DNA of 38,932 bases from a virus (IMGVR_UViG_3300020430_000035:1-38932), one strand, 5' to 3'; counted from the first letter of the stretch, positions 2,484-38,932 are shown. Program-made: numbers and translations. The notes: generated by a model not told the origin, from the letters alone.

Positions 2484-3626
2484 ATGAAAAACACACTTAG
2501 CAACCTTTCGTTAAAAAACAAATACACTTTAAGTGATGCTATACAAAACTTTGTTACACAGAAATATCACGTAACAAAAGGAACACAAAGAGCAGACATT
2601 ACAATAAAGTCTTATAAAACAATATCTAACATACTTTTAAAAACAATTCAAAAACATAAAGTAGATTATGATTTGTTACAATTAAATCTAAATAAATATT
2701 TAGACGACCCAATCAAATCAAATGAAATCAAAAACAAATACAAAAAAATATCTGAGGTAATAAAAAGCGAATCACAACACTTATCACACAACACTTTACA
2801 AAAAAGATTAAACATCTTAAAATATAGTTTGTACTCAGCTGAAAAAGATATGACAATAAAAACTTATGTAGTGCCGTTTGATATGAAATCCAAATCAACA
2901 AAGCGTCAAGTGATGAGTGCGTCAGCTTTCAAGACTACAATTAAAAATGCGTTTTTAGTATTGCGTCAGCAGGAAGGTGAAAAAATAAGAAGGAAGCAAT
3001 GTCCTGCTTCAGGAAAATTTATCAAATCACCTGAACAAATAAGTCAGGCAGGAGATGTAAAAATGATGAAGCGAGGAGCGTTTGCTTTTCTTTTAGTGGC
3101 ATTTACGAGTGCAAGAATTAAAGATGTTATGTCTTGGAGGTTTACTAAAAACATTAGTATTAACAAACATCATTATATTCTTTCTTACAAACCCAACAAA
3201 ACAAAACATACTGTTATTGATATACCCTTGCCACTACAACTAAACGGATACATAAATCATTTGATACGTAACAATGACCATCCGATGAAAGATTATTTTT
3301 TAGATAATCTATCTTATACACATTTGTTAAAGTGCTTTAGGTGTTTTATTAAATCAATCCCCGAACTAAATCAAAATGTTTCTGTACATAAAGACCTATC
3401 AAATGGGGAAGTGATTACTAAACAAAAAAAACTATATGAAATACTTACCTTTCATAATATACGTGCTACATTTATTACGCAAATGGTTGAGAAAGGCATA
3501 GACCTAGAAACTATTATGAACTTTAGTGGACACACTAACATACAAACACTTTCACAGAAGTATACAAACATAAGCGATGAACACAAAGGCAAAATGTATC
3601 AAAAATTTATGTCTGAAATCTTATAG
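2484..3626 (+). CDS. tyrosine recombinase / phage integrase
   Basis: Catalytic set visible: SARIKD (R), PNKT (K), HNIR (HxxR), SGHTN (H), QKY (Y). Confidence 0.9.
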   Translation: MKNTLSNLSLKNKYTLSDAIQNFVTQKYHVTKGTQRADITIKSYKTISNILLKTIQKHKVDYDLLQLNLNKYLDDPIKSNEIKNKYKKISEVIKSESQHLSHNTLQKRLNILKYSLYSAEKDMTIKTYVVPFDMKSKSTKRQVMSASAFKTTIKNAFLVLRQQEGEKIRRKQCPASGKFIKSPEQISQAGDVKMMKRGAFAFLLVAFTSARIKDVMSWRFTKNISINKHHYILSYKPNKTKHTVIDIPLPLQLNGYINHLIRNNDHPMKDYFLDNLSYTHLLKCFRCFIKSIPELNQNVSVHKDLSNGEVITKQKKLYEILTFHNIRATFITQMVEKGIDLETIMNFSGHTNIQTLSQKYTNISDEHKGKMYQKFMSEIL

Positions 3627-3974: not shown

Positions 3975-4227
3975 AATTCATAATTGGAATATCAATCTTG
4001 AGTTTGATATTGTAACTGATAAAAATGTTATGTGTAAGTTTTCAGATATTAAAAAATATATATCTGATAAACGACCAGACTTGATAAAGAAATACTTAAT
4101 CAAGTCAAAACTAAAGAAGAATGTAGATATAGAAAGAATTATAGCTTGGGATTCTTTAGTGACAGAATTAATTGAATGCAACTTATTAAAACATATTATA
4201 AATGAAATTCGAGACAGTAAATATTAA
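3952..4227 (+). CDS. hypothetical protein
   Basis: ATG 3952 with an A-rich leader minimises overlap (track start 3877). Confidence 0.55.
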   Translation: MQINQTIRIHNWNINLEFDIVTDKNVMCKFSDIKKYISDKRPDLIKKYLIKSKLKKNVDIERIIAWDSLVTELIECNLLKHIINEIRDSKY

Positions 4228-4609
4228 AGGAACGCCATACGTGATGGCAAAAGAAAGAATTAAGTATTTCAGAACCACTCCTATTTTTAAAGGTTGGTCT
4301 TTGAAAACAGAAATGATTTATCATACAGATGAAAAGGTAATATTTAAAACAGAGGCTTACGACACTAAAGGAACTTTAAGAGCAACGGGTCATGCCTTTG
4401 AATTAAAAGGCTCATCTTTTATAAACAAGACGAGCTATATAGAAAATTGTGAGACATCTTCAGTATCAAGATGTTTAGCTTTATTAAACATAGGCATTGA
4501 TGAAAGCGTTGCATCTTACGAAGAAGTAGCGAATGCAAAACTAAATCAGAATGGTCAAGCGAAACAAACGAACCCACTCCAAACAATCTCTCAAAACACT
4601 GTATCTTGA
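4202..4609 (+). CDS. putative single-strand annealing protein (Rad52/Sak-like)
   Basis: IKG.PYV..KERIKYFR and GHAFE..SSFINKTSYIENCETS.V.R.L..L.IGID motifs; lies next to the YqaJ exonuclease. Confidence 0.6.
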   Translation: MKFETVNIKGTPYVMAKERIKYFRTTPIFKGWSLKTEMIYHTDEKVIFKTEAYDTKGTLRATGHAFELKGSSFINKTSYIENCETSSVSRCLALLNIGIDESVASYEEVANAKLNQNGQAKQTNPLQTISQNTVS

Positions 4610-4859
4610 AATTTGGAATGAAAGACAACATAATTGTACGGTTTGTAAAAAGTATCTTTGGAATGAGCCAAAAGCACAGTTCTTCGCACACATATTATCC
4701 AAAGGAGCGTATCCAAGCTACAAATTCAAGAAAGAAAACATCACTATTCTTTGTTACGATTGCCATTATCGTTTTGACTTTGGGAGCAGTAAGGATGACA
4801 AAAGATTTAAATGGTTACACAAAGAAAAAGAGAGGCTCAAAAGAAAATATTACGAATGA
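4551..4859 (+). CDS. HNH endonuclease (NinG-like)
   Basis: CTVC...AHI...ENITILCYDCH. Confidence 0.8.
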   Translation: MVKRNKRTHSKQSLKTLYLEIWNERQHNCTVCKKYLWNEPKAQFFAHILSKGAYPSYKFKKENITILCYDCHYRFDFGSSKDDKRFKWLHKEKERLKRKYYE

Positions 4860-5911
4860 AGAAGTACGAGATTGACAATTATACACTTTACCCTTACTCA
4901 CATTTGTCTTATGAGGAATGGTTAGAGATAAGGAGTAGTTTTGGTTTAGCGTTAGGGGGTAGTGATATTAGCGTAGTAATGGGGGTTAATAAATATTCTA
5001 CCCTAGCTGAACTCTTTGACCAAAAACTTGGACTATCCAATCCCCCAAACTTACAGGGAAACAAATCTGTTTTTTGGGGCAACGCATTAGAAGATGTTGT
5101 TCTTGAAAAATCACAATACCTTGATATAGACCATAAAGATTCTTATTTAGATAATTCAGCACACGAAAGAAAGATGCGAAATCATGTCCCTTTTAATTAT
5201 ACTATACAAAATGACAACTTACATTGGTTATTTGCAAACGTAGACGGTTTATGGGTTGATGACAATGAAAAAACAATAGAGTCTAATTTAAAAAAAGGTA
5301 AACTACCTAACCCTAAAGCAATTATAGAAATCAAAACCATGAATAGAAATGTGTTTGATATGTGGGAAAACGGTATGCCAATAGGATACCTGTATCAGGT
5401 TCTTAGTTACCTGACACAGTATACCTTTATGAATGAAGAGATAGAAGGATACATTTTTTCTTTGGTAGCAGGTATAGAATTACATGGTTACAGAATTAGA
5501 TATGACGATGAAGTCATAAATGAAATGTTAGAGCGTTCAAGAGAGTTTTATGAGCTGTTACTTATGGGTCAAGACATAATACAAAACTCTTCAAATCCAG
5601 AACAAATGGAGCTTGGGTTACACGACATTAGACCAGAAGCTGATGGCTCACTAAGATATCAAGAATATATGAACAAAAAATATTTAGAGAGATTAGACAT
5701 CTCCAATATAGCAGAGGGAGACGATGCTATACAAGAAATTGCTGAAAAGTATGCAGAGCAAAATGCTTTCATAAAAGAAGCAAATAAACACAAACGACTA
5801 TATGGGAATCAAATTAGAGAAACTCTAGCTAAGATGAACGTAGGTCAAATTAATCTTCCGAAAGGGGGATATGTTAAATACAATAACAAATTAATTATAA
5901 AAGTTAAATAA
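4856..5911 (+). CDS. YqaJ / lambda-exonuclease family recombination nuclease
   Basis: EWL..R...LGGSD....GVNKY, WG..LE, ANVDG, IEIKT, Y..QV..Y; ATGA overlap at 4856. Confidence 0.88.
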   Translation: MKKYEIDNYTLYPYSHLSYEEWLEIRSSFGLALGGSDISVVMGVNKYSTLAELFDQKLGLSNPPNLQGNKSVFWGNALEDVVLEKSQYLDIDHKDSYLDNSAHERKMRNHVPFNYTIQNDNLHWLFANVDGLWVDDNEKTIESNLKKGKLPNPKAIIEIKTMNRNVFDMWENGMPIGYLYQVLSYLTQYTFMNEEIEGYIFSLVAGIELHGYRIRYDDEVINEMLERSREFYELLLMGQDIIQNSSNPEQMELGLHDIRPEADGSLRYQEYMNKKYLERLDISNIAEGDDAIQEIAEKYAEQNAFIKEANKHKRLYGNQIRETLAKMNVGQINLPKGGYVKYNNKLIIKVK

Positions 5912-7250: not shown

Positions 7251-8900
7251 ATGCAACTAAATTGGGAAGAGATTTCAAAACAGTTACCAACCACTCCAAA
7301 ACAACAAGTCAAACTAAGGTGTCCCGTATGCGATGGTATACGTAGTGACAAAAAAGATAGGTCTCTTTCTGTTAATGTTAAAGATAAAGTATGGAATTGT
7401 TTTTACTGTGGGGAAAACGGATACGATACTAACGATGTAAAAAAAAAAGATATTCCAACATTTGTTATGATTAAATCTCACGCAGACAACTTATCAAAAG
7501 AAACATTGAAATGGTTTAAGGACAGAGGCATTTCTTCTGATACAATAAACCAGTTTAAGATACAAGAAAAAAATAATGAAATACATTTCAATTATTACGA
7601 AGATGATATTTTAGTTAATATCAAATACAGAAGCACTAAAGAAAAAAAGTTTAGACTTTATCCTAACGCAAAACTTATAGCTTACAATATAGATTCTGTT
7701 AATGAAGACACAGAAACATTAGTGATTACAGAAGGAGAGATTGATGCACTTACCGTTTATGAAGCAGACAGTTCTCTTGCAGTCATCTCTGTGCCTAATG
7801 GTGCTAACGGTCTTGATTGGGTTGATGCATCTTATGATAAAATTAAGAATGTAGATAGATATATTCTTGCTTTAGATGGAGACTCTAAAGGTCAAGAGTA
7901 TCAAAAAGAACTATCAAGAAGACTTGGTAGACATAAATGCTCTTATTTAAGCTATCCTAAAGGCACGAAAGATATAAATGAGGTAATGGTATCACACGGT
8001 ATAGATAGTGTCTTAGAATGCATCTCCAATCCCGTAGACTATCCTATCGTTGGTATCTATGAGAAGTCAGACTGGAAAAATAATCTCTGGGATATTTTTG
8101 TTAACGGGTATGACAAGGGAGATACTGTGGGTCTTGGACACTTTGATAACCTTTTATCTTTTTCTACAGGACAGATGACAGTTATATCAGGAGTACCTAG
8201 TTCAGGAAAATCAGAATTTTTAGACCAGATTGTTTTAAATCTGGCAATGAAAAAAGATGTAAATAAAAAGGAATGGAAGTTTGGTGTGATATCTTTTGAG
8301 AATCCTGTTCACCTACACATATCAAAACTTGTCAAGAAATACCTTCACAAACCTTTTGATAAGCAGTACATACACGAAGAGGAAATAGTTGACGCAGTAA
8401 ACTTCATTGATTCTAAGTTTAAATTTTTCAATGTATCAGAAGCAGACATGACAATAGAAGGTATTCTAGATACCTCGAAGGAATTAGTAGCAAGATATGG
8501 TATCACATCACTTGTGATAGACCCATACAACTACATAGAAAGTAAAATGGAAAAAGGACAAAGCGAAACTAATTACATATCTGATGTTCTTACGCAAGTA
8601 TTAAACTTTGCTAAAGAATATTCAGTTCATGTATTCTTTGTTGCTCATCCAACTAAAATACAAAAAGACGAAACAACAGGTAACTTCAAACTACCTTCTT
8701 TATATAGCATTAGCGGTTCTGCTAATTGGTATAATAAAACCGATAACGGTATAATAGTTTGGAGAAACTTTCAGACAGACGAAATTGAAGTTCATGTGCA
8801 AAAGGTAAGGTTTGCTTGGAATGGAAAGGTAGGATTAGCTAGGTTTAAATATAACAAAGAGACTGGCGAGTTTAAGGCTGACTACTTAAATCCATGCTAG
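7251..8900 (+). CDS. bifunctional DNA primase-helicase (T7 gp4/Twinkle type)
   Basis: Zn finger CPVC..CFYC, TOPRIM ITEGEIDAL and DGD, Walker A GVPSSGKS, VIDPYN, VAHP, SGSA.W.NK.D. Confidence 0.93.
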   Translation: MQLNWEEISKQLPTTPKQQVKLRCPVCDGIRSDKKDRSLSVNVKDKVWNCFYCGENGYDTNDVKKKDIPTFVMIKSHADNLSKETLKWFKDRGISSDTINQFKIQEKNNEIHFNYYEDDILVNIKYRSTKEKKFRLYPNAKLIAYNIDSVNEDTETLVITEGEIDALTVYEADSSLAVISVPNGANGLDWVDASYDKIKNVDRYILALDGDSKGQEYQKELSRRLGRHKCSYLSYPKGTKDINEVMVSHGIDSVLECISNPVDYPIVGIYEKSDWKNNLWDIFVNGYDKGDTVGLGHFDNLLSFSTGQMTVISGVPSSGKSEFLDQIVLNLAMKKDVNKKEWKFGVISFENPVHLHISKLVKKYLHKPFDKQYIHEEEIVDAVNFIDSKFKFFNVSEADMTIEGILDTSKELVARYGITSLVIDPYNYIESKMEKGQSETNYISDVLTQVLNFAKEYSVHVFFVAHPTKIQKDETTGNFKLPSLYSISGSANWYNKTDNGIIVWRNFQTDEIEVHVQKVRFAWNGKVGLARFKYNKETGEFKADYLNPC

Positions 8901-9244
8901 AGTATATAGTTTTAGAATGGGAAGGACATATATCATTGAATCAATGGTATTCCTCAAAACATTGGAGCTATAGAAAAAAGCAGAAAGACCATTGGCATGA
9001 GATTTTCAAAACCAAACTACAAGATTACGATAAAACCCTTTTTGACAGATACAAATTTAAATTGTATTATAACTCAAGATTAGACCCATCTAATACAATA
9101 ACGATGGTCAAACTATTAGAGGATACAATGAAAAAAGAGGGTTGGATTATTGATGACTCTCCTAAATATTGTGCCGAAATAAGATTGAAGTTCGACTCAG
9201 AGCTACCAAAAAAATCTTATAGAGCAGTAATTGAAAAATTATAA
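8894..9244 (+). CDS. RusA-like Holliday junction resolvase
   Basis: SLN, RLDPSN, K..ED.M, I.DDS motifs. Confidence 0.75.
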   Translation: MLEYIVLEWEGHISLNQWYSSKHWSYRKKQKDHWHEIFKTKLQDYDKTLFDRYKFKLYYNSRLDPSNTITMVKLLEDTMKKEGWIIDDSPKYCAEIRLKFDSELPKKSYRAVIEKL

Positions 9245-22396: not shown

Positions 22397-24141
22397 TATG
22401 GTTGATTTGTTAATGTTACACTTATTGCAAAAGTTAAACTATCTCCTACCTGTGCAGCTCCCACTAAATCAAAGCTCCAGTTAAATGTTATAGTTGTATC
22501 ATTAGCTGTTGTTGGGTTAGAGCTTACAGTCAAATTCTGTAAATCAGCACTATTTTCTGATGATGAAATACTTATCTCACTTGCGGTATTTCCTGTAAAA
22601 TTACCTGTTGCGGTTGCAGTACCACTAACAGTACCTGTTTTTCCTACTCTAACTGTTCCTCCTGTGTTCACTGTAACTCCACTTAAATCATCGTCAGTTT
22701 CTGTTATAGTTACTGTTAATGATGGAATTGAAATATTTACATTAGCGGTATTTCCAAATGTATTTGAGCCAGATGGGTCTTTTGCTTTGTATGTAAATTG
22801 AGCTAAATTAACACCTCCAGCAGAAGTATAAGTAAATGCTCCTGTATTAGCGTTGTCTAGTGATAAAGAACCGTTAGAAGGATTTGTTACGATTTCATAT
22901 AAAACCGCATCACCTTCTGGGTCGGTTGCATTTAGTGTTCCAGAAACCGCATTACCACTTGTTATAGATAAGTTTACATTACTAGATACAGGAGGCTCAT
23001 TTATGTTGCCAATATTAACAGTAATAGTTCCTGTTCCTACTCCTCCACCAACATCTGTTGCTGTTACTGTTAAATTATAAGAAGTTGTTGTCTCAAAGTC
23101 TGGTGAATTAGCAACAGTAATTTGTCCTGTAGAAGAATTTATAGCAAAATCATTATTTGTATTACCTCCAGTTATTGCATAAGTGAGTCCTGTGTTTGTT
23201 CCATCCGCAGAACCATTTACAGCGACTACACTATGTACGTTAGTTCCTACAGATACATTTTCATTTATTGATACAGTAGCTCCTGTTACTGTAGGATTTA
23301 CATTTGTGACTGTAATGTTAAATGATTCTGTATAAGAAAGACCATCACCATCAACTACCTTGATATTTAAAATAAAACTTCTATCATCTGTGTTATTAAA
23401 ATTAAAAGTTCCTACTGTTTTAAGTAAACAAGTTGCATCAGTATTATCAGAATCTACAAGAGTAAATCTAGAAGAAGCATCATTATTACTTGCATCTACA
23501 GCGTTCATTATTGTAAAATCTGCTGTGTCACTAGAAGTAGAATCTGTAACTGTTATAGTTCCAATAGTCGTTGCTGCTGCATCTCCTTCAGAAAAAGTAG
23601 AGCTAGATATAGATAAGTCAGATGGAGCATCTCCTGTACTTTCTATAGATACAGGTAAAACAAACGCAGGTGGTTTTTTTATCAGAGTTAAATCTGTAAT
23701 GTCTGTAATGGTCGCTGCCGACCTTTCTGTATACCAACTAAGAGGAACGCCTCCTTCTCTATAGTTCCAAACTAATACATCACCTATAATATTTATATCT
23801 GGGTCAAAGTCTGTTGTTACTGCGTGAGTATATGTTAGTAGTAATGTAGCAGTGCTACCTGATATTTTATAAATCTTAGCTTTTGTAGTCCCTTTTACAA
23901 GTACGTATATATTATCATCATTATCTCTAATGCTAGCTTTTACTACGGGATTGGTCAATCCCGATGATAAATCTACATTTATAGTAGATACAGAGTTCAT
24001 TGTTTTAGTAGAACCAGCTCCTCCTTCTTTTCCAGTTTCTACTACAATATTTTTAGCATCTAAGTAATCACCTTTTGGAAAGTAGTATTTGTCAGCATCT
24101 TTGTTTAAACCTCCGCTTGATATAAAATTATTTCTAGGCAT
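22396..24141 (-). CDS. tail stabilisation protein N-terminal part fused to cadherin/Ig-like repeats
   Basis: NF..GGLNKD.D.....GDY.DA.NI and LIKKPP, then cadherin motifs (SINEN, FAI.S.TG.I.V, DFET...Y.L.V.ATD, NINEPP, ATDPEGD). Confidence 0.8.
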   Translation of the reverse strand: MPRNNFISSGGLNKDADKYYFPKGDYLDAKNIVVETGKEGGAGSTKTMNSVSTINVDLSSGLTNPVVKASIRDNDDNIYVLVKGTTKAKIYKISGSTATLLLTYTHAVTTDFDPDINIIGDVLVWNYREGGVPLSWYTERSAATITDITDLTLIKKPPAFVLPVSIESTGDAPSDLSISSSTFSEGDAAATTIGTITVTDSTSSDTADFTIMNAVDASNNDASSRFTLVDSDNTDATCLLKTVGTFNFNNTDDRSFILNIKVVDGDGLSYTESFNITVTNVNPTVTGATVSINENVSVGTNVHSVVAVNGSADGTNTGLTYAITGGNTNNDFAINSSTGQITVANSPDFETTTSYNLTVTATDVGGGVGTGTITVNIGNINEPPVSSNVNLSITSGNAVSGTLNATDPEGDAVLYEIVTNPSNGSLSLDNANTGAFTYTSAGGVNLAQFTYKAKDPSGSNTFGNTANVNISIPSLTVTITETDDDLSGVTVNTGGTVRVGKTGTVSGTATATGNFTGNTASEISISSSENSADLQNLTVSSNPTTANDTTITFNWSFDLVGAAQVGDSLTFAISVTLTNQP

Positions 24142-30182: not shown

Positions 30183-30767
30183 CTATGGAGCAGCGTTACC
30201 ACGACCACCGCCGCCTCCTCCGCCACCGCCTCCTCCAGACGCAGCAGCTTGGCTAACAGCAGTAGACCTTGTGGTTGTAGTGTTTGCATCACCCAATCCC
30301 CCACCAGTTGTTCCTACATCAAATGTAACCACTATGTTACCACTTCTAGCACTACCACTATTAGCGGCAACACTAAATGTGACAGTTCCATCTCCTGTAT
30401 CTTTTAAACTACTTCCTTCATTACCAGATGTAATTGTAACCCAACTGGGTTTTGAAGATACATAAAATGTAGAATATTCTGCGTGTGTAACCGTTATTGT
30501 TCCTGCGCTACTATGAGAACCACTTGAAAACTGACTAAATGATGCAGGTGTAGTTCCTAAACTAACGCTATGCTCGTAAGAAAAAAACTCTTTTAATTGA
30601 TGAGGGGCTGATGTATCGGGTTTGTTGTCATTAAGGTTAGTAACATTTATTGTACCATTAGTACCATCGTTTAATTCTTTTAAAGATGTATTTGCAGTAG
30701 TACCAGTTCTACCTAGTTCTACATTAATGCCATTCATAGAAATTTGTCCTGATACAGGTAGTGTCAT
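30183..30767 (-). CDS. tail-tip/adhesin protein with a BACON-like domain and poly-Gly tail
   Basis: LP.SG.ISM..IN.ELG N-terminus; PSWVT...GTVTFSVAAN....RSG.I.V; G11-RG C-terminus. Confidence 0.7.
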   Translation of the reverse strand: MTLPVSGQISMNGINVELGRTGTTANTSLKELNDGTNGTINVTNLNDNKPDTSAPHQLKEFFSYEHSVSLGTTPASFSQFSSGSHSSAGTITVTHAEYSTFYVSSKPSWVTITSGNEGSSLKDTGDGTVTFSVAANSGSARSGNIVVTFDVGTTGGGLGDANTTTTRSTAVSQAAASGGGGGGGGGGGRGNAAP

Positions 30768-31342
30768 CCTTTATAATTTACAAGTGGAACTTTATATATA
30801 TCTTTTGTGTAGTATTTGTTATCTGGGGGATTGATAGAAACCTCATGATGTTCTACTTCATCAAAACCTAAATCTGAATCATTATTCCAATAAGTTACTT
30901 TACACTTAGATTTTGCATGTCTTTCTACTAAAGGTCTTAAAGCGTGTCTATACTCATCTCCATAAGTGTCTTGTAATATGCAATCGTATTTACCATACTC
31001 ATCTAATACTTCTATCCACAAACCTTCTATTATGGTTACATTAGGTTTGTCTTCTGCCCATTCTTTTAGTCTAGGTATAATATCTTTATGGCACTCTACT
31101 ATAGTATGTGATTTAGGTTTTTTCAACTGTATTGCATCAGATAATATACCCATGCCAAATCCTATCTCTAATACATCGTCTCCTTCACTTACGCACAACT
31201 CTGCCATCTTATCCATTATAGGTTGTTCCCAATCCATCATTACTTGATAGGTTTCATCGTTTTCGGGATTGACCCAATAAATACCATTATCATCAAATGT
31301 TAAATCTGCTGCTCTATAGTTTTCCGCAAATGTTGGCATCAC
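30764..31342 (-). CDS. class I SAM methyltransferase, GAMT/RMT2-like
   Basis: VMM.WE.PIM, VLEIGFGMGI, HTIVECH, G.W, YD.I..DTY. Confidence 0.85.
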   Translation of the reverse strand: MMPTFAENYRAADLTFDDNGIYWVNPENDETYQVMMDWEQPIMDKMAELCVSEGDDVLEIGFGMGILSDAIQLKKPKSHTIVECHKDIIPRLKEWAEDKPNVTIIEGLWIEVLDEYGKYDCILQDTYGDEYRHALRPLVERHAKSKCKVTYWNNDSDLGFDEVEHHEVSINPPDNKYYTKDIYKVPLVNYKG

Positions 31343-34300
31343 TTATTTAGTTTTTTTTTGAGTTCTTTTACTTCTCCTTTAAGTTCTTTTACAGCTTCTA
31401 TCAACACCGCAGTTAATTTTTCATAATCAACTGTCTTATATGTTCCTCCTTCTATTAGAGCCATTTTCTTTTCTCTTACTATTTCTGGTATAACTTCTTC
31501 TACTTCTTGTGCTATAACCCCTATATCTTTTTGTCCTTTTCTTGATGTAGCGTTCCACGTATATTCAACCCCCCTAAGTTTGCTTACTTTATCTAAAGAG
31601 TTTTCTAATGTTAATACGTTATCTTTTAATGCTTTGTCTGATACTGTAGTAGAGTATGCTATAACATCACCATCAACATGAAGGTCACCATCTGACTCTA
31701 AACGCATACGTTCTGAACCTCCTGCTTGTACAATTGCATTACCAGATGAACTACCAAAAACAACTGTGCCACTACTGTCTATAATTTCAATTTGCGAATC
31801 TGCAGATGATGATGTAAACCTTGCAGAAATTTGAGTTGAATTAACTGATAAAGGTCTTGCAGGCGATGTCGTTCCAATTCCTACGTTTTCTTCAGAAGTA
31901 TCAATATATAATATGGAAGCATTATTATTACTGCCTAACTGTACATCTCTTGTTCCATCGCTCATTAATGACAGTTTACCACCATCATTAATTAATTTAC
32001 CTACAAAAGTTGCTGATGTACCTACTCGCCAACCACCAGTTGTATAAGCATCTGAATTAACGTATAATTTATCATTAAAAGAAGTTGAAGTTGCATTTAC
32101 TAATAATCTACCTGACGAATCCAGTCGCATACGTTCTGTGTTGTTTGCGGCAAAAAGAATATTACTGTTTTCTCTTTGCCAAAGTACAGCTTCATTAGTT
32201 GTATTGACACCAACATCAAATCCATCTCCACTTGTAGCTCCTGTTTGTGCATTACTAAATTTAGCATACGATACTGAAGAAGCTGTACTATTATGAACGT
32301 GAAGTTTTTGAGCAGGCGAAGTTGTTGAAATTCCGACTTTTCCATCTCCTTTAATAAACATTCTTATATTTCCATTTGATGAAAATGCTAACTCACCACC
32401 ATCATTCTCTGAATCAGCAGAATTAATTTCAGCACAACCTGAATGTTGTCCACCTGATACATCACTTCTAGTTCTTATTTCTAACCCTCTTGAACTTGTA
32501 CCAGTAAAAATAGCGTGTGTTAGAGTACCACCACCAGTACCACCTCTTACGTCAAGTTTTTGTGTTGGCGAGGCGTGTCCGATTGCTACATTACCATCAT
32601 TCCTAATTAAAAATCTTGAATTAGAATCAGTCCATACTGAAAAAGGTGCAGCATCAGTTCTACTAGAATTATTAGTTTTTATTTTAACATTATTACCATC
32701 ACCAGAATTAAAGAACTCAACCATTGCACCCATGCTAGAACTTATACCAGCAAATCCTGCTATTGCATCAACTTGCAAATATCTTGCTTCTGAAGTACCT
32801 GATATTTCTAATTTTGCATTAGGCGATGTCGTACCAATTCCTACTTTTGCATTATCAAAAACAATATCACAATGGCTTAATCCACTATTAATAGGTAACT
32901 CTCCACTAGCAGTTCCTTCACCAAAACCATATTTTCTATTTTCTGCATCGTAAACCCAATCAACAAAAACAGCATCTGAGGCAGACGTATCAACTCCTTG
33001 TATTCTTATACCAGTCCTACCTGTATTTGAAGACTTAAATCTTGCTATTAATTGGTCGGCAGTATTTACCATAAGTTTTGCATCAGGCGATGCAGTTCCA
33101 ATTCCAACTTTTCCGTCTGATAAGATACGCATACGTTCTGTTCCACCAGTAATGAATTGTATTCTATCTGATTCAGGTAAATTTATTCCTGTATTGGTAT
33201 CGCCTTCACAATTAAATGTAGGTTGTCCTGCAGAACCTGCACCTGCTGATATTCTTCCATCTGTTTCTATTTTGTTACCACTTGTTCCTGATGTTTTTCC
33301 AACTAAAACATTACCTGTGCTATCTAGTCGCATACGTTCTGATGATGATGTTGTTCCTGTTTTAAAAAGTAAATTACCTACATTAGTATTTTCAATTTCT
33401 GAAGTACCAACTACAGTAGCACCAGCTTTTGATTGTAGTATTAATCCTGATGAAGTATTACCAGTTGCAAGAACTCTAATTTTATTTTCTGCACTTTGTT
33501 CAATGTCTAATTTATAACTCGGATTTGTCGTTCCAATTCCTACATTGCCAGAACTGTCTATTCTTATTGAATTTGATGACGCACCTGATTCAACAACAAA
33601 AAATTCATTACCACCTTCTTCTTGAATTACAAATTTATTAGCATTATCTACTCTACTTGTGTATTCTTTTGTGCCTCTTTTTAATTGTAGTTTTGGTGAT
33701 GTGCTGTTTGTAATTTGTACAGTTCCATCGCTCTCAATACGCATACGTTCATTATTACTACCACTACTATTAGTGTGAAAAATTAAATCCTGTCCTGTCG
33801 CTGTACCTAAATGAGAACTTGTAGATGAAGAATATAAAAAGAAATCAAAATCTGTTCTACCTAGCAATATTTGACCACCTGCTGTATCACGTATATCTAA
33901 AGTATTATAATTACTATTATTAGTTGGGCTGTTTGTACCTAATGCAAAATTACCATTATTATCTAGTGTTGCTTTTTGTCCACCATCAATATAAAATTTT
34001 ATTGTAGAACTACCTTGCTCATTATTTTCATCAGCAGATATATTGATACCACCAGTATCATCAGAATAAATAAGAGCATCAGTATTATTAGTAGTGTCTA
34101 AAAGTGTTATTTGTGGTGAAGAATTTTGTATTGTAACATCACCTGCAAAAGTTGCAGAGCCATCATTTTCAAATAAAACCTTTTGAGTACCTTCAAAGAA
34201 AAATCCTAAATCTGAATCATCTGCGGCTCTTCTTATACCAGCTATATGTATATCTGCATCTTTATTTCTAAGATGCAACATAGCCATAGTACCCGCCGTG

Positions 34301-37300
34301 TTACTAGTATTTTCTATTCTTATACCTTCACTACCCCAAGCACCACCACTACCTCCAGAAAAGCTAGTATCTGTATTAGAAAATTCTACGTGTAATTTTT
34401 GGTCAGGCGAGGTTGTTCCGATTCCTACTCCAGTATTATCAATGTGCATTCTATCATCACCCCCAGTTCTAAAAGTCCATTGGTCTCCTTGTGCTCTTAT
34501 ATAAGTGTTATGGTCGCCATTATGATATATATAATCATCAATACCTATACTACCAGCCACCTCTAATTCAAAGTCAGGCGATGCCGTTCCAATTCCTACG
34601 TTGCCTGATGTGTCCATTACAAGTTTTTTTGTGTTACCACCACCTGTAACTATTCCAAAAGCACCTTCACAAAACATGGTTATATCTGACGCTAATCCGA
34701 CAGTCGCCCAAGAATCAAGACCTAAACCACCTCTAAATGTTGTATTGTCAAAAAACCTAATAGCGTTAGTAGTTGACTTTGTTATATCAATAAATCCGTT
34801 AACTTGTAATGCTTGACCAGTTATGTTAGACGACTGGTTTATCATTACCCTTCCATCACTATCAATACGCATTTTTTCACTGCCTGAAATTAAAAATTGT
34901 TGTGATAAAGCATCTGTTCTTGAATTCATATAAGCTGATGCAGTTCTATCATAATGAGTAATACCGTTTGTGTCTGTAACTACTTCAGGTTGAAACTCTA
35001 TTCCTGATGCACCCCCATTAGAAACAACAAATTTAGTTAAAGGCGTAATTGTTCCAATTCCTATATTTCCATCGTGTTCTATAGCCATAATATTTCTAGT
35101 AAAGCCATAAGAATCGTTTAACCCTTGAAATATAAGTGCTGGATATGAACCTGACATCATCATAGAAAATGCCCTTTTTCCACTTGTTACTCTGTCATTT
35201 TTAATGTTAAAACGTAGATTATCAGAATTTCCATTTAGAGTTATACCATCATTATTAGTGTCAGTATTTACTTCTAATATAGTATCAGGCGAAGTCGTTC
35301 CAATTCCTAAATTTGTATTTGTAAAATAAGCATCTACAGTACCATCACCACCTTTTATTCTGAAATGCTCATTTTCACCACCACCTGCTGCTGTACCAGT
35401 TTTAATAACAACAGCACCGTTAGGTGTTCTGTTTGTAAGAAAAGGATATGAAGCGTTGTTTGTATAATCAAACATTAGGAAGAATCTATCTGTAGCACTA
35501 CCACTTTCAACGGGTCTATATACTTGCCCTAAAACAGCACCACCAAAGTGCAAATCTCCATCAAACTTACCAGTACCACCTACGTGAAGTTTTTCATCGG
35601 CAGTTGTGCGACCTATCGCTACATTACCACCAGTCAAGATACGCATACGTTCTGTGCTATTAGTAGCTAATGTAATAAAAGAAGAACCCCCTGCTGTTTC
35701 AATATTTAATTGATTAGAAATTCCAGTAGAAAATGCTGTCCTTATTTGCATACCATTTGCAATAGAAGAAATATCTAAAAATTGTTGAGATGTACCTGAA
35801 ATATCTTTAAATCTTGCTATATTTCCATTAGTAGTAGTATCTTCTATGTGTAATTTAGCATTAGGCGATGACGTACCCAGCCCAAGTCGTCCTGACGAAT
35901 CCAGTCTCATACGTTCACTTCCAGCAGTCTGAAATTGCAATGAGTTATCTGAATGATAGTATCTTATTTGACCTACGTATGATGATGCCCCTGTACCATC
36001 TCCAAATAATAAATAACCATAACCAGATGAACCAGATAAAATAGATATTTGAGAACTATATGCAGGTGTTGATGTGCTTCCTACTGCTAATATTGGATTG
36101 TCAGATACATCATAATTACTTGGGTTTGACTCTCCAATTCCGACGTTTTTTGAAGTATCTATTGTTATTGCTGCTGCACCATTTTGTGTTATTGTGAACG
36201 AATGATTGCTTGATGAACCCACAAAAGTATCAAAATCATCGTGGTCAGCACCACCAAATAAAACTTTATCAGTAGATAAATCTTTTTGAAACTTAAATCT
36301 AGAAGCTAGGTTGGTTGTACCTCTTACATCTAACGCCATTGTAGGAGCATGACCACCAATAGCAACGTAACCAGTAGTATCAACTGTAAATTGAGTGTTG
36401 GCAGCGCTAAAACTAGAACCGTAAGCAAGAGACCAATTAGCTTGTTGATTTAAACCAGACCACCAATAGTTACTACCTGTAGATTGATTGTTATATTTAA
36501 TTGCTACTTCTTCTGGAGTGCTACCGTCTGTTGATTCTAAAGTTAGATATACATCTCCAGTTTGCTGTACTGTTACATCCCCTGCAAATTTTGCATAACC
36601 ATCTTGATGTAAATTAAGTATTTTAGTAAATGTGCTTAAAGCATGAGAACCTCCAGTTGTGCCATGTTTTTTTACATAAAATTCTAAACCACCTACACCA
36701 CCACTTGGCATCTTAATTATTGACATACCTGCACTTGAAGCACCAGCATAATGAGGTGTGTATGTTGCAGTTTGACCACCATCATAATCAGCATTAAAAG
36801 TTAATTGTGCTGTGTTACTTGCTCCTGTTCCAATTTCTAAATATGCTCCATTAGAAATAATTGAAGTAGAGCTAGTATTTATTATATCACCAGTTACAGT
36901 TAAATTACCTGTTATACTTGCGTTACCAGTTAGACTACCATCCCACTCTCCTGTAACACCTGTTAAGTTACTACCATCACCATAAAAATGAGTTGCAGTC
37001 ATTGTTCCAGTAACCGTTGTATTACCACTATTACCAGCAATAGTTAATCTTGCAGTTTCATTTGTACCTAATACTAAATCTCTAATACTACTATTATGAT
37101 AGATATACATAGCAGTTGCGTTTAAAGCGATTGCCCCTGTATAACCATTACCTTCAACTTGTAATTGACCAGCACCACCACTACTCATGCTTATATTGGT
37201 ACTATCGCCTAACTCTACATTACCTGCAAAAGTTGCGTTTCCATTGTTTAATAAATGAAGCGCTCTAGTTCCTGAGTTTGTAGCAAATCCAGTAGCAGTA

Positions 37301-38932
37301 GTTGCTCTATCAACAAAGAATAATAAACCACCACTTGTGTTACTTGCTGAAATAACAGCGTTGTTATCACCAACAGCTAATCTTAAAGCTTGTTGTGTAC
37401 TGTGTGTATTAGGGTCATTTCCTTCAATGATAGCTAAACACGGAACATCATCTTGTGCTACAACTACTGTATCAAAATTAGTCTTGGCAGCAATATCAGT
37501 TCCAGCTCCAAAATATGCAACATGACCATTGCCTGAGCTATATGCTTTTTTAACATCTAAAACATAATTATTACTAGCGGCAAGAGATGTAGAGCCTGCA
37601 GTAATATTTCCTGCAAAAGTTGCATTTTGTGAATCGTCTAATTCAAGAGCCTCTATACCAACTGTAAAAAATTTCATCGTTGAGCCAAGTGATTCAGCTC
37701 TTAGTTCTACATTATCTCTATCTGAAGCATTTAATAATAGCTTGGCTCTTACTGTGCCAGCGTCTGTTAAATGAATATTATCCTCTGCTGCAACAGTTCC
37801 TGTAAAAGTTGCGTTAACTGCTCTAAATACACCACTTGAACCAGCACCAGTAACTACGACATCACCATCTTGTTGTAATTCAAAAGTGTGTGCTGCTACA
37901 CCAGTTAAACTTGGAGTTGCTGCTTGTGGATAAAATTGTAAATTTGGCGAAGCACCATTTCTACAAGAAATATCCCACCTGATTGCACCATTAACATCAA
38001 AAAATAATTCAGCTGGGTTGTCAGTAATACTTCTTAATCTCATTGTTGCCCTACCAGTTAATGCTTCATTTATAAAACCACTTGTACTATCAGAACCATA
38101 ACTACCACTAGAATAACGAAGATGTAATGCAGAAACTGGCTGCCTACCTATACCAACATACCCTGCAAAAGTTGCGTTGCCACCTTCTGACATATCTAAA
38201 GTTAATGCCGTGACTGTAGACCCACCTTGATTTCCTTTAAATACAATATCTTTATCTTGATTAATGGAGTTGATGACTAAACCATTATAGCCTTTAATAT
38301 CTCCGTATAAATAAAGGTCTCTCCATCTATTAGTTTCTTTACCTAAATCATTTACAGCATCAGCATCAGAACCATTTGAATATGTACTTACAAACGCAAC
38401 GCTATCTTGTTTAAATCCTCTACCACCATCAGTTGTAAAAAATGGTGCTTTTACGTGCCCTGCAAAAGTTGTGCCTGTGCTAGTAAATGTTGCAATATGC
38501 GCATCACCACTACTCAACATTTTTAATTGTCCACTTCCTTCGTGCTGTAATCTAGCAACACCACTTATGTTTCCAAGAGCAACATTTCCATCAGCTTTAA
38601 CAACACCTTCAAAAGTCGCGTTTCCAGACGTGTCTAAAGTTAATTGGTCAGAACCTTCAGAATCAATTGTTCCATTTTTAAATTTTAAAGAAACAGCATC
38701 TGTAAGTATAACAGCGTTGTTAGCTCCTGTTTTATCAAAGAATAATGTTGGCTGTTGTCCTCTAATTGTTATTTGACCATTGTTAGTTGTATCACCAACT
38801 ACTAAACCAGGTTTATCTGTCGTTATAGCATCATCACCAATAATAACTCTTCCTCCAAAAGTTGCATTACCAGAACTATCAATACCTAAATGAGTAGTAG
38901 ATGATGGAACATTAATAAAACTAAAAGCACCT
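31339..38932 (-). CDS. long modular tail fibre with a C-terminal peptidase S74 intramolecular chaperone (5'-truncated by the window)
   Basis: The frame stays open from 38520 to the window end (checked by hand); many ERMRIDSSGNVGIGTTSP and GNATFAG repeats; SDKALKDNV...GVIAQEVE...VDY.KL..L.EAVKEL. Confidence 0.92.
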   Translation of the reverse strand, partial: GAFSFINVPSSTTHLGIDSSGNATFGGRVIIGDDAITTDKPGLVVGDTTNNGQITIRGQQPTLFFDKTGANNAVILTDAVSLKFKNGTIDSEGSDQLTLDTSGNATFEGVVKADGNVALGNISGVARLQHEGSGQLKMLSSGDAHIATFTSTGTTFAGHVKAPFFTTDGGRGFKQDSVAFVSTYSNGSDADAVNDLGKETNRWRDLYLYGDIKGYNGLVINSINQDKDIVFKGNQGGSTVTALTLDMSEGGNATFAGYVGIGRQPVSALHLRYSSGSYGSDSTSGFINEALTGRATMRLRSITDNPAELFFDVNGAIRWDISCRNGASPNLQFYPQAATPSLTGVAAHTFELQQDGDVVVTGAGSSGVFRAVNATFTGTVAAEDNIHLTDAGTVRAKLLLNASDRDNVELRAESLGSTMKFFTVGIEALELDDSQNATFAGNITAGSTSLAASNNYVLDVKKAYSSGNGHVAYFGAGTDIAAKTNFDTVVVAQDDVPCLAIIEGNDPNTHSTQQALRLAVGDNNAVISASNTSGGLLFFVDRATTATGFATNSGTRALHLLNNGNATFAGNVELGDSTNISMSSGGAGQLQVEGNGYTGAIALNATAMYIYHNSSIRDLVLGTNETARLTIAGNSGNTTVTGTMTATHFYGDGSNLTGVTGEWDGSLTGNASITGNLTVTGDIINTSSTSIISNGAYLEIGTGASNTAQLTFNADYDGGQTATYTPHYAGASSAGMSIIKMPSGGVGGLEFYVKKHGTTGGSHALSTFTKILNLHQDGYAKFAGDVTVQQTGDVYLTLESTDGSTPEEVAIKYNNQSTGSNYWWSGLNQQANWSLAYGSSFSAANTQFTVDTTGYVAIGGHAPTMALDVRGTTNLASRFKFQKDLSTDKVLFGGADHDDFDTFVGSSSNHSFTITQNGAAAITIDTSKNVGIGESNPSNYDVSDNPILAVGSTSTPAYSSQISILSGSSGYGYLLFGDGTGASSYVGQIRYYHSDNSLQFQTAGSERMRLDSSGRLGLGTSSPNAKLHIEDTTTNGNIARFKDISGTSQQFLDISSIANGMQIRTAFSTGISNQLNIETAGGSSFITLATNSTERMRILTGGNVAIGRTTADEKLHVGGTGKFDGDLHFGGAVLGQVYRPVESGSATDRFFLMFDYTNNASYPFLTNRTPNGAVVIKTGTAAGGGENEHFRIKGGDGTVDAYFTNTNLGIGTTSPDTILEVNTDTNNDGITLNGNSDNLRFNIKNDRVTSGKRAFSMMMSGSYPALIFQGLNDSYGFTRNIMAIEHDGNIGIGTITPLTKFVVSNGGASGIEFQPEVVTDTNGITHYDRTASAYMNSRTDALSQQFLISGSEKMRIDSDGRVMINQSSNITGQALQVNGFIDITKSTTNAIRFFDNTTFRGGLGLDSWATVGLASDITMFCEGAFGIVTGGGNTKKLVMDTSGNVGIGTASPDFELEVAGSIGIDDYIYHNGDHNTYIRAQGDQWTFRTGGDDRMHIDNTGVGIGTTSPDQKLHVEFSNTDTSFSGGSGGAWGSEGIRIENTSNTAGTMAMLHLRNKDADIHIAGIRRAADDSDLGFFFEGTQKVLFENDGSATFAGDVTIQNSSPQITLLDTTNNTDALIYSDDTGGINISADENNEQGSSTIKFYIDGGQKATLDNNGNFALGTNSPTNNSNYNTLDIRDTAGGQILLGRTDFDFFLYSSSTSSHLGTATGQDLIFHTNSSGSNNERMRIESDGTVQITNSTSPKLQLKRGTKEYTSRVDNANKFVIQEEGGNEFFVVESGASSNSIRIDSSGNVGIGTTNPSYKLDIEQSAENKIRVLATGNTSSGLILQSKAGATVVGTSEIENTNVGNLLFKTGTTSSSERMRLDSTGNVLVGKTSGTSGNKIETDGRISAGAGSAGQPTFNCEGDTNTGINLPESDRIQFITGGTERMRILSDGKVGIGTASPDAKLMVNTADQLIARFKSSNTGRTGIRIQGVDTSASDAVFVDWVYDAENRKYGFGEGTASGELPINSGLSHCDIVFDNAKVGIGTTSPNAKLEISGTSEARYLQVDAIAGFAGISSSMGAMVEFFNSGDGNNVKIKTNNSSRTDAAPFSVWTDSNSRFLIRNDGNVAIGHASPTQKLDVRGGTGGGTLTHAIFTGTSSRGLEIRTRSDVSGGQHSGCAEINSADSENDGGELAFSSNGNIRMFIKGDGKVGISTTSPAQKLHVHNSTASSVSYAKFSNAQTGATSGDGFDVGVNTTNEAVLWQRENSNILFAANNTERMRLDSSGRLLVNATSTSFNDKLYVNSDAYTTGGWRVGTSATFVGKLINDGGKLSLMSDGTRDVQLGSNNNASILYIDTSEENVGIGTTSPARPLSVNSTQISARFTSSSADSQIEIIDSSGTVVFGSSSGNAIVQAGGSERMRLESDGDLHVDGDVIAYSTTVSDKALKDNVLTLENSLDKVSKLRGVEYTWNATSRKGQKDIGVIAQEVEEVIPEIVREKKMALIEGGTYKTVDYEKLTAVLIEAVKELKGEVKELKKKLNK
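31703..35916 (-). repeat. dispersed 11-bp repeat GAACGTATGCG (ERMR)
   Basis: + strand CGCATACGTTC at 31703, 32126, 33128, 33329, 33740, 35642; variants at 35906 and 34868. Confidence 0.85.
31861..36144 (-). repeat. dispersed 24-bp repeat, + strand consensus AGGCGAnGnnGTTCCAATTCCTAC (VGIGTxSP)
   Basis: AGGCGA copies at 31861, 32314, 32821, 33085, 34405, 34576, 35287, 35863; variants at 32566, 33520, 35041, 35599, 36121. Confidence 0.85.

Follow-up and report, generated by a model that had tools for sequence, protein, structure and literature searches.

The stretch analyzed here is a virus record of 38,932 bp with 32% G+C (IMGVR_UViG_3300020430_000035:1-38932, referred to as the window), which encodes an integrase, a YqaJ exonuclease, a primase-helicase and virion genes. 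We focused on the distal part of its tail-fibre gene together with the S74 chaperone, and found that unrelated fibre modules are separated there by 20 copies of a short junction. We consider, with a probability of about 0.7, that the DNA of these junctions serves as short homology patches for ordinary recombination that swaps whole in-frame fibre modules, and not as sites of a dedicated enzyme. Four observations are direct: junction-bounded modules are common to different phages at 88-99% identity, shared patches are reordered, crossover intervals spread over about 70 bp, and junction copies are synonymously homogenised.

A second record of the same phage (G001, also L001; 99.98% identity over 18 kb) supplies the complete fibre gene. 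Its protein has 4,417 amino acids (aa) counted from the first Met, and 2,530 aa fall in the window. The sequencing runs containing this phage are marine metagenomes, 11 of which carry a flag as a possible source of the window DNA. The C-terminal chaperone carries the SDxxxK signature of Peptidase S74 domains as SDKALK.

31339..38931, minus strand: tail-fibre gene (PHROG tail fibre families), 5' end cut by the window
31477..31641, minus strand: Peptidase S74 intramolecular chaperone (PF13884, E 2.6e-15, aa 2431-2485, starts SDKALK)

Junctions and rare codons in the distal fibre

The 20 junction copies, including degenerate ones, lie between 31642 and 36180 at a spacing of 171-312 bp. The junction motif is ERMRIDxxGNVGIGTxSP, and most copies retain just one well-spelled half. 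The initial annotation, made from the sequence alone, had treated the ERMR linker and VGIGTxSP as separate motifs, but the two are halves of one junction; its statement that all copies are in direct orientation is confirmed. The junctions separate 19 modules of 57-104 aa, whose bodies are mutually unrelated as it had claimed (171 pairs compared; best raw score 42, top z 4.2), while the module length of up to 465 bp that it gave has to be corrected to the spacing above. The junctions are located as follows.

Junction 1, 36103..36180, minus strand: ITIDTSKNVGIG; patch ends 36125-36144
Junction 2, 35845..35922, minus strand: both halves; 26-bp word 35891-35916
Junction 3, 35581..35658, minus strand: ERMR half
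Junction 4, 35269..35346, minus strand: LGIGTTSP, TCG CCT
Junction 5, 35023..35100, minus strand: IGIGTITP
Junction 6, 34807..34884, minus strand: EKMR
Junction 7, 34558..34635, minus strand: VGIGTASP, TCG CCT; patch ends 34589-34606
Junction 8, 34387..34464, minus strand: DRMH...VGIGTTSP, TCG CCT; patch ends 34400-34427
Junction 9, 34114..34191, minus strand: ATFAG type; patch ends 34135-34145
Junction 10, 33907..33984, minus strand: degenerate, FALGTNSP; patch ends 33955-33973
Junction 11, 33679..33756, minus strand: ERMR half; patch ends 33735-33750
Junction 12, 33502..33579, minus strand: VGIGTTNP; patch end 33533
Junction 13, 33268..33345, minus strand: ERMR half
Junction 14, 33067..33144, minus strand: both halves; matched in cultured Pelagibacter phages
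Junction 15, 32803..32880, minus strand: VGIGTTSP, TCG CCT; patch ends 32823-32847
Junction 16, 32548..32625, minus strand: VAIGHASP, TCG CCA; patch ends 32567-32578
Junction 17, 32296..32373, minus strand: VGISTTSP, TCG CCT
Junction 18, 32065..32142, minus strand: ERMR half; 26-bp word 32111-32136
Junction 19, 31843..31920, minus strand: VGIGTTSP half, TCG CCT
Junction 20, 31642..31719, minus strand: ERMR half, exact word 31703-31713; the chaperone block shared by relatives begins at 31707/31715

The word GAA CGT ATG CG occurs in six exact in-frame copies on the minus strand (31703, 32126, 33128, 33329, 33740 and 35642), as announced earlier, and a further copy with one mismatch lies at 35906-35916. 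Only 0.07 copies are expected by chance, and seven copies were reached in none of 100 shuffles. TCG CCT is present in frame eight times, and 32111-32136 and 35891-35916 agree at 25 of 26 positions, the repeat being found just as described.

Junctions for the codon test were chosen by protein motif alone. The first Arg of E-R-M is written CGT in 7 of 8 junctions versus 4/79 in the rest of the gene (p 4e-7), and CGT accounts for 22 of the 363 Arg codons in 35 other genes of the genome. The second junction Arg is CGN in 6/7 cases (7/79 elsewhere in the gene), the Ser before Pro is TCG in 9/10 (7/251 elsewhere, p 8e-12) and the junction Thr is ACG in 6/10 (9/255 elsewhere). This comparison of junction and non-junction Arg and Ser upholds the codon bias proposed in the initial annotation; concerning Ser-Pro as TCG CCT, the count of eight and the Ser bias stand, but the Pro codon CCT has no significant bias (8/11 vs 14/32, p 0.09). 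NIRMF and DDRMH, which had been taken as background controls, are both degenerate junctions and thus not independent.

Two other causes of the codon bias were considered and rejected. Codon-pair context explains little in the window genome, where E-R has CGT in 2/22 and S-P has TCG in 3/17 cases in other genes. Across genes with third-position G+C (GC3) below 0.2, S-P has TCG in 43/131 junction cases vs 4/95 outside, M-R has CGT in 55/91 vs 5/32 and G-T has ACG in 50/222 vs 38/824, with E-R weaker (35/90 in junctions, 4/23 outside). As to restriction-site avoidance, the common alternatives AGA, TCT and TCA form no GATC, CCGG, GGCC or CGCG.

The junction corresponds to the capping loop

The closest PDB match of the fibre is Bdellovibrio Bd2133 (8OND; E 3e-11, phmmer), and the alignment runs through ERMRIDxSGNxGxGT..P. 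The motif VG.G..xP...L of Bd2133 and Bd3182 is named the capping loop of S74-type beta-helix fibres in the available text of PMC10769870, and the fibre junction shows this motif. The Bd2133 subdomain borders given there, G683 and E813/N814, land on the junction (construct numbering mapped by us onto the phmmer alignment). Because these borders coincide with it, the junction is regarded as a structural border, and therefore a crossover there preserves the reading frame and likely the fold. The fibre probably has a trimeric beta-helix fold and undergoes autocleavage, judging from homology.

The MAT fibres of Bdellovibrio resemble the window fibre in the loop motif, the S74 chaperone with SDxxxK and the chimeric architecture. 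However, they are predator surface proteins, while the window gene is a phage virion gene. The MAT superfamily is marked by a signal peptide and a conserved N-terminal domain of ~130 aa in a predatory bacterium, and the window fibre is not filed as a member. As far as its available text goes, PMC10769870 treats tip swapping and contains no DNA-level analysis or internal module exchange; its Supplementary Fig. 18 concerns capping loops and may bear on the novelty of our findings.

Module exchange among related phages

Aligned with G001, the related genome G002 shows 95.4% identity over one stretch of 25.3 kb and 95.7% over another of 12.0 kb, but the distal fibres of the two have just four patches in common (179-299 bp, 75-92% identity). 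Moreover, these patches are ordered A-B-C-D in one genome and A-D-C-B in the other. Identity between G001 and G002 returns at 31715, two bases ahead of the last exact word. The two fibres are nearly equal in length (4,417 aa, G001:C1:32165-45442; about 4,380 aa, G002:C1:4286-17452) though their middle parts are for the most part different, a hint that fibre length is constrained.

Single window modules were also found in other loci. The module 32847-32567 is present in L213 at 95% identity, junction to junction, and in L214 at 78%, reaching 32542. L215 has the module 33750-33533 at 92%, and L220 and L221 have the module 34605-34405/34417 at 88-89%.

For a breakpoint census, 162 non-redundant open reading frames (ORFs) were compared all against all, with patches of at least 120 bp and at least 80% identity and a junction zone of 26 residues. 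As a result, 47 patches were obtained, and 46 of their 64 distinct internal ends are inside junction zones, as against 22.7 for random positions (maximum 36) and 17.4 for local shifts (maximum 32) in 2,000 draws. Of the 18 missed ends, several belong to N-terminal fibre regions whose repeats are of another type. Window modules also turn up with foreign flanks, at up to 98-99% identity, in contigs of four more runs (four studies). Taken from the best 32 of 619 pieces, picked for length or joint position, 24 of 29 internal ends there (18 of 20 distinct places) are in junction zones, which make up 31% of the region. Four of the five missed ends (four contigs, three runs) sit at 35482-35492 at T-D-R-F-F-L, outside the annotated junctions; this site, spotted after the fact, looks like a decayed ERMR half-junction. 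The prediction of the initial annotation that mosaic breakpoints of related contigs would fall inside the junctions is borne out by both counts.

Patch ends scatter from -12 to +9 residues about the junction, and the crossover intervals, which together spread over about 70 bp, vary by case. Among the base-level alignments listed, identity starts before E, after M-R, after S-P or at L-H-V, and the crossover partners are frequently without CGT or TCG in the junction. Thus two features known from T-even-type adhesins, namely unrelated variable segments between conserved motifs and natural exchanges in or near these motifs, are both present in this family.

The proximal fibre half (window 36500-38932; G001:C1:39500-45442) consists of other repeat types, including xNATFAG (9 copies) and, further up, GDLQIYHDG-like and EGSSNLYFT-like repeats. 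It is also a patchwork between G001 and G002, and its junctions are written with common codons.

Synonymous homogenisation and proposed junction alleles

In 30 genes with GC3 < 0.15, including the window gene, the second Arg is CGT in 30/46 copies (4 expected), Ser is TCG in 28/59 (1 expected) and Thr is ACG in 24/105 (4 expected), and ACC, TCC and CCG are not raised (2 vs 5, 2 vs 1 and 0 vs 3 expected). Each gene tends to a spelling of its own, with three copies each of AGA ATG CGT in L147, CGG ATG CGT in L057 and CGT ATG CGC in L071. Synonymous identity of junction copies is 0.548 within a gene and 0.387 between GC3-matched genes (98/108 genes), as measured on copies with unrelated flanks after the removal of 35 of 1,549 pairs with related flanks; the non-junction codon control gives 0.395 within and 0.386 between. 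The initial annotation had named free synonymous codons in homologues as evidence against it. Many spellings do exist, so this objection holds in part, but the copies of each gene share one spelling, which argues for homogenisation rather than a fixed recognition site. Conservation at the DNA level, as it had proposed, is supported.

Compared with the window gene, seven module-sharing relatives score 0.42-0.51 and two others 0.31-0.33. Therefore homogenisation acts at least partly at the level of the phage pool and not strictly within one gene. The 26-bp word is found exactly in seven other IMG/VR records, representing six distinct fibre genes with GC3 of 0.10-0.49. Its flanks in these records differ from those of the window, two of them have a common upstream flank, and two of the records are distant relatives of the window phage. 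Yet in a codon-unbiased sample of 91 flank-independent ERMRLDSSG copies, this spelling is found once. A separate codon-unbiased IMG/VR scan (122 stretches from 4/64 parts, 129 copies) shows, among the classes listed, that each degenerate position is written in several ways. The codons of a spelling also go together as haplotypes: identical pairs number 248 as against 161, and none of 3,000 stratified shuffles exceeded 241. The p-values of the homogenisation and haplotype tests are optimistic since the genes share common ancestry.

Junction 14 has counterparts in cultured Pelagibacter phages, with one match of 59 bp at 86% and another of 36 bp at 94%. The phages Bylgja and Kolga contain genes designated as "hypothetical" that are composed of the same junction-linked modules (L227 3212-4798; L228 926-5075), and these genes likewise put the rare CGT and TCG at junctions. 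From these data we infer that junction DNA is inherited as short alleles, which move between phages and spread among copies.

Candidate recombination genes

The window encodes the following recombination genes.

2484..3626, plus strand: tyrosine integrase (PF00589), judged not to be part of the junction system
4202..4609, plus strand: predicted Rad52/Sak-fold single-strand annealing protein from a structure model, candidate engine; putative link to the fibre
4551-4859: HNH endonuclease, overlapping the annealing-protein and YqaJ genes
4811..5911, plus strand: YqaJ/RecE-like exonuclease, candidate partner; putative link to the fibre
8894..9244, plus strand: RusA-like Holliday junction resolvase; putative link to the fibre

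ORF 4202-4609 encodes 135 aa, which is shorter than most of the homologues listed. It has no Pfam match, and a PDB sequence search with its alignment found nothing. Its structure model, based on 71 of 120 listed sequences, has a mean predicted local distance difference test score (pLDDT) of 78.7 and shows the Rad52 fold. The best matches of the model are Mgm101 (E 1.5e-4) and RAD52 (6e-4) in Foldseek, and RAD52 at Z 8.8 (root-mean-square deviation 2.9, 99 aligned) and phage 80alpha Sak at Z 8.1 (deviation 3.1, 96 aligned) in VIA. We therefore designate it as a predicted annealing protein; its fold and its place next to the YqaJ exonuclease agree with the annealing protein and YqaJ pair suggested by the initial annotation. 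Together with the HNH endonuclease and the RusA-like resolvase, the two may form a complete recombination kit. According to the available text of PMC3945230, Rad52-like phage recombinases drive exchange between short, diverged sequences, and the minimum homology quoted for Red-beta is 23-27 bp.

Proposed mechanism

In the mechanism that we propose, junction DNA would act as a short homology patch with co-infecting or resident phage genomes as partners, and recombination there would swap, add or remove whole in-frame modules. The engine would be single-strand annealing, here probably by the Rad52/Sak-fold protein and the YqaJ exonuclease. Selection would retain only crossovers that leave the fibre fold in register, making the breakpoints sharper. 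Each exchange or short conversion would rewrite part of a junction from the donor, so that spellings travel as alleles through a wide phage pool; an AT-rich phage would use CGT, TCG and ACG against its own mutation bias because donor spellings circulate and spread. The outcome would be a host-binding repertoire altered over evolutionary time and not a programmed switch.

Several points weigh against this mechanism. BLAST patches extend into any conserved motif close to the true breakpoint, and the loci were sampled via junction or chaperone, so that the breakpoint counts are inflated. The ends are not independent of one another. Homogenisation in the window gene is 0.47 vs 0.40, below the family mean. 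The window's own junction pairs are thin in homology, with a mean of 46% over 54 nt and a longest exact run of median 6 and maximum 18 nt (190 pairs), under the 23-27 bp quoted for Red-beta in the available part of PMC3945230. This thinness fits the stability of the population, and it points to junctions of other phages, where the match is closer, as the usual partners. No enzyme is linked to the fibre, and G004 (91% complete) and G005 (83% complete) have related fibre ends without the Sak family, neither being shown to hold the array. No crossover was observed and no module-number variant appeared in the contigs of four runs. Finally, in each of the three GC classes CpG, GpC and CG-N4-CG are more frequent, and CC/GG less frequent, than expected from synonymous codons matched for G+C, and junction GC3 follows that of the module bodies with a slope of 1.24 (179 genes), with no regression to the pool mean.

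The base composition can be read in two ways. The slope of 1.24 argues against a simple regression to the pool mean, and junction GC3 exceeds the module-body expectation in 34 of 37 genes with GC3 of 0.45-0.65. Measured against other genes of the same locus, however, the excess is largely one of AT-rich phages (0.27 vs 0.15, 13 loci), while GC-rich phages show no difference (0.57 vs 0.57, 7 loci), which argues for such a regression; overall it is not significant (21/36 loci, p 0.17). The CpG excess is explained only in part. In GC-rich phages, the module bodies are AT-richer than the neighbour genes (expected GC3 0.46 vs 0.57, 7 loci), as for imported modules.

A bolder form of the proposal is tentative and in our view rather doubtful. 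The capping-loop junction might be a DNA interface common to aquatic phages of different hosts, with alleles that circulate alone as conversion tracts of 25-55 bp, modules that would move more frequently if their flanks have common spellings, and CpG/GpC-rich spellings that are favoured in transmission.

Alternative explanations

The initial annotation had also offered the tyrosine recombinase (2484-3626), which would exchange or excise cassettes site-specifically at the motif. The genome and a close relative do have an intact PF00589 gene, and the 11-bp word, exact six times, is confined to the fibre gene. This explanation is largely refuted: the patch ends scatter from -12 to +9 residues with varied intervals, just one column of 54 is the same in all 20 junctions of the window, and there is no dyad structure. 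PF00589 was detected in none of five records with junction arrays, including three near-complete genomes, and in two of five in another record set, which are the phage itself and its close relative. Site-specific recombination is thus rejected because the crossovers scatter, the DNA core is not invariant and integrase-free phages have arrays. The 11-bp word was found only in the fibre gene, with 6 copies in G001 (87% complete) and 3 in G002 (91% complete), and there is therefore no silent cassette. The active accordion envisaged earlier is not supported either. No skipped-module variant of the phage was found in the contigs of four runs, in which rare variants are lost, nor did any joint between two junctions have long sides; a single uninterrupted contig of 5,677 bp spans all junctions without difference (it may stem from the source sample), and runs X12-X14 gave low-depth identical pieces only. 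The joints 33550-35049/35050, 33044-36842 and 38259-33818, and likewise the joints between junctions in contigs of the four further runs, were rejected as deletions, having sides of just 20-39 nt, and most likely derive from junctions of other phages.

It is unlikely, though less so than the recombinase, that illegitimate or microhomology crossovers occur anywhere and those at capping loops alone are foldable, with the codons a relic of module duplication and descent. The Bd2133 borders that map onto the junction, as given in the available text of PMC10769870, indicate a real protein constraint, several crossover partners differ within the junction and have no CGT or TCG, and junction homology within the gene is short. 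But synonymous sites of junctions are alike where the flanking modules have no similarity, TCG and ACG are one step from preferred codons and still reach 28/59 and 24/105 in the most AT-rich genes (1 and 4 expected), and the exact 26-bp word is present in genes with GC3 of 0.10-0.49. Quite improbable is a signal of the junction DNA itself, either a CG-N4-CG word to which a recombination or nicking protein binds or a transmission bias (GC-biased conversion, stronger annealing) for CpG/GpC-rich spellings. It would account for the CpG, GpC and CG-N4-CG excess in all three GC classes, for the junction GC3 raised over module bodies in 34 of 37 genes, and for the fact that CG-N4-CG arises from each half, though not in the same frame, giving 12 in the fibre where other spacings up to 30 give 0-4. 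Yet a spacing of 4 is automatic when two CG codons stand two residues apart, spellings without CG-N4-CG (AGA, AGT) are fixed in many genes, the commonest ERMRLDSSG spelling has CTC and TCC, and the GC3 excess over other genes is not significant. A genome-wide CG-N4-CG signal was dismissed, as there are 13 outside the fibre but another spacing attains 12. A stem can be drawn by eye in the junction, but the tests are negative: with G+C-matched or position-specific synonymous nulls as reference, the 78 canonical copies show no gain in folding (RNA p 0.11 and 0.55; DNA p 0.26 and 0.83), no structure came out of RNAalifold, and the window junctions have no excess of 4-bp palindromes (2.65 vs 2.64). 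As improbable as the recombinase is an effect on translation, in which rare codons slow it at capping loops for folding or suppress an internal start at the ERMR Met. The codons are rare in the genome and placed at structural borders, but the other rare codons ACC, TCC and CCG are not raised, TCG and ACG are still enriched in GC-rich genes, in which their rarity is less marked, each gene has spellings of its own, and AGA precedes ATG in 24 of 46 AT-rich copies. Short-read misassembly at repeated words is the least credible of all. The relatives are all metagenome contigs, some of low depth, and the G002 fibre has a short gap of unknown bases; against this, the window order is repeated in G001 (99.98%) and in the unbroken 5,677-bp contig, which may stem from the source sample, patch ends sit where the partners mismatch, the same module has the same borders across studies, and codon homogenisation is independent of the joins.

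Comparison with known systems

Recombination at motifs of T-even adhesins is reportedly described by Tetart et al. in 1996 and 1998. The available text of PMC3157838 reports it for the adhesin genes of T-even phages at conserved motifs (the glycine-rich motifs of gp38, and gp37). Both there and in the window family, conserved motifs alternate with variable segments in a receptor-binding fibre, exchanges fall in or near the motifs, and general recombination would act without a dedicated recombinase (PMC3157838, available text). The motif and fold are unrelated, however, and the sizes differ: the T-even adhesin has, in the part of the source available, five motifs around four short loops, while the window fibre has 20 junctions, whole modules of 57-104 aa and 4,417 aa in all. 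Modules of the window fibre change order and move between distant phages, and its family shows synonymous homogenisation of junctions, which the available text of PMC3157838 does not mention for T-even phages. T-even swaps were, according to that text, demonstrated by crosses, and the swaps of the window fibre come from sequence comparison only. The sole long-tail-fibre match in the PDB is 6F45, over the chaperone region; the PDB search of the fibre gave no gp38 match at E 0.01, and the fibre is not filed in the gp37/gp38 family.

Tail-fibre inversion systems, shufflons and integron cassettes likewise change adhesin parts combinatorially at repeated words. Unlike them, the window fibre has no invariant core, inverted sites, fixed crossover point or silent cassettes, and a recombinase is not required. 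Mosaics made by Rad52-like recombinases (Sak, Red-beta, Erf) are similar in the short diverged homology at borders and the small intragenic exchanges, and the window genome encodes both an annealing protein, as predicted, and an exonuclease as such systems do (PMC3945230, available text). In contrast to these mosaics, the homology here is a protein repeat at about 20 places of one gene, permitting ectopic exchange, and most window junction pairs are under the Red-beta minimum quoted in the accessible part of that paper.

The capping-loop protein motif is already known, and the new part would be the synonymous homogenisation and module exchange at its DNA. In a literature search covering few subscription journals, we found no paper on junction DNA or exchange at the junction, and none on concerted evolution or gene conversion of phage tail-fibre repeats.

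Neighbouring genes and other features

A gene for a protein similar to S-adenosylmethionine-dependent methyltransferases (30764-31342; weak Pfam matches to RrnaAD and Methyltransf_25) lies directly behind the fibre gene and stays with the chaperone end in relatives. Behind it is a small BACON-domain protein with a C-terminal poly-glycine run.

30183-30767: BACON-domain small protein, C-terminal poly-glycine run

This protein is a possible fibre-tip or adhesion accessory, and its domain hints at Bacteroidota as the host. At 19859-24141, two genes of the window (581 aa with cadherin and Big_9; 845 aa) apparently correspond to one longer ORF in relatives (L002 9438-13121, L007 7692-11261), and the phage appears to have a split form with adhesion domains added. 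Short palindromes are strongly avoided in the window (1-38932): outside the fibre gene, GATC is found 0 times on both strands vs 184 expected, and CCGG (0), GGCC (0) and CGCG (1) are also avoided, with the same avoidance in G002. This suggests heavy restriction pressure in the host.

Biological meaning

In two genomes with 95% identity, the distal fibres differ almost completely while being of near-equal length, and single modules are found at 98-99% in other phages. In these abundant marine phages, host recognition would therefore change through the exchange of modules at a much higher pace than other parts of the genome. Junctions keep a record of exchange in their synonymous spelling, which is a measurable marker of gene flow between phages. 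They also allow tests of the shortest homology that phage annealing proteins can work with in nature, and of whether recombinability itself is maintained, and since cultured Pelagibacter phages have the same junction, experiments are within reach. If the junction is indeed an interface shared among aquatic phages, fibre modules would amount to a single library of mobile parts common to the whole community, with a connector that maintains itself and without a dedicated enzyme.

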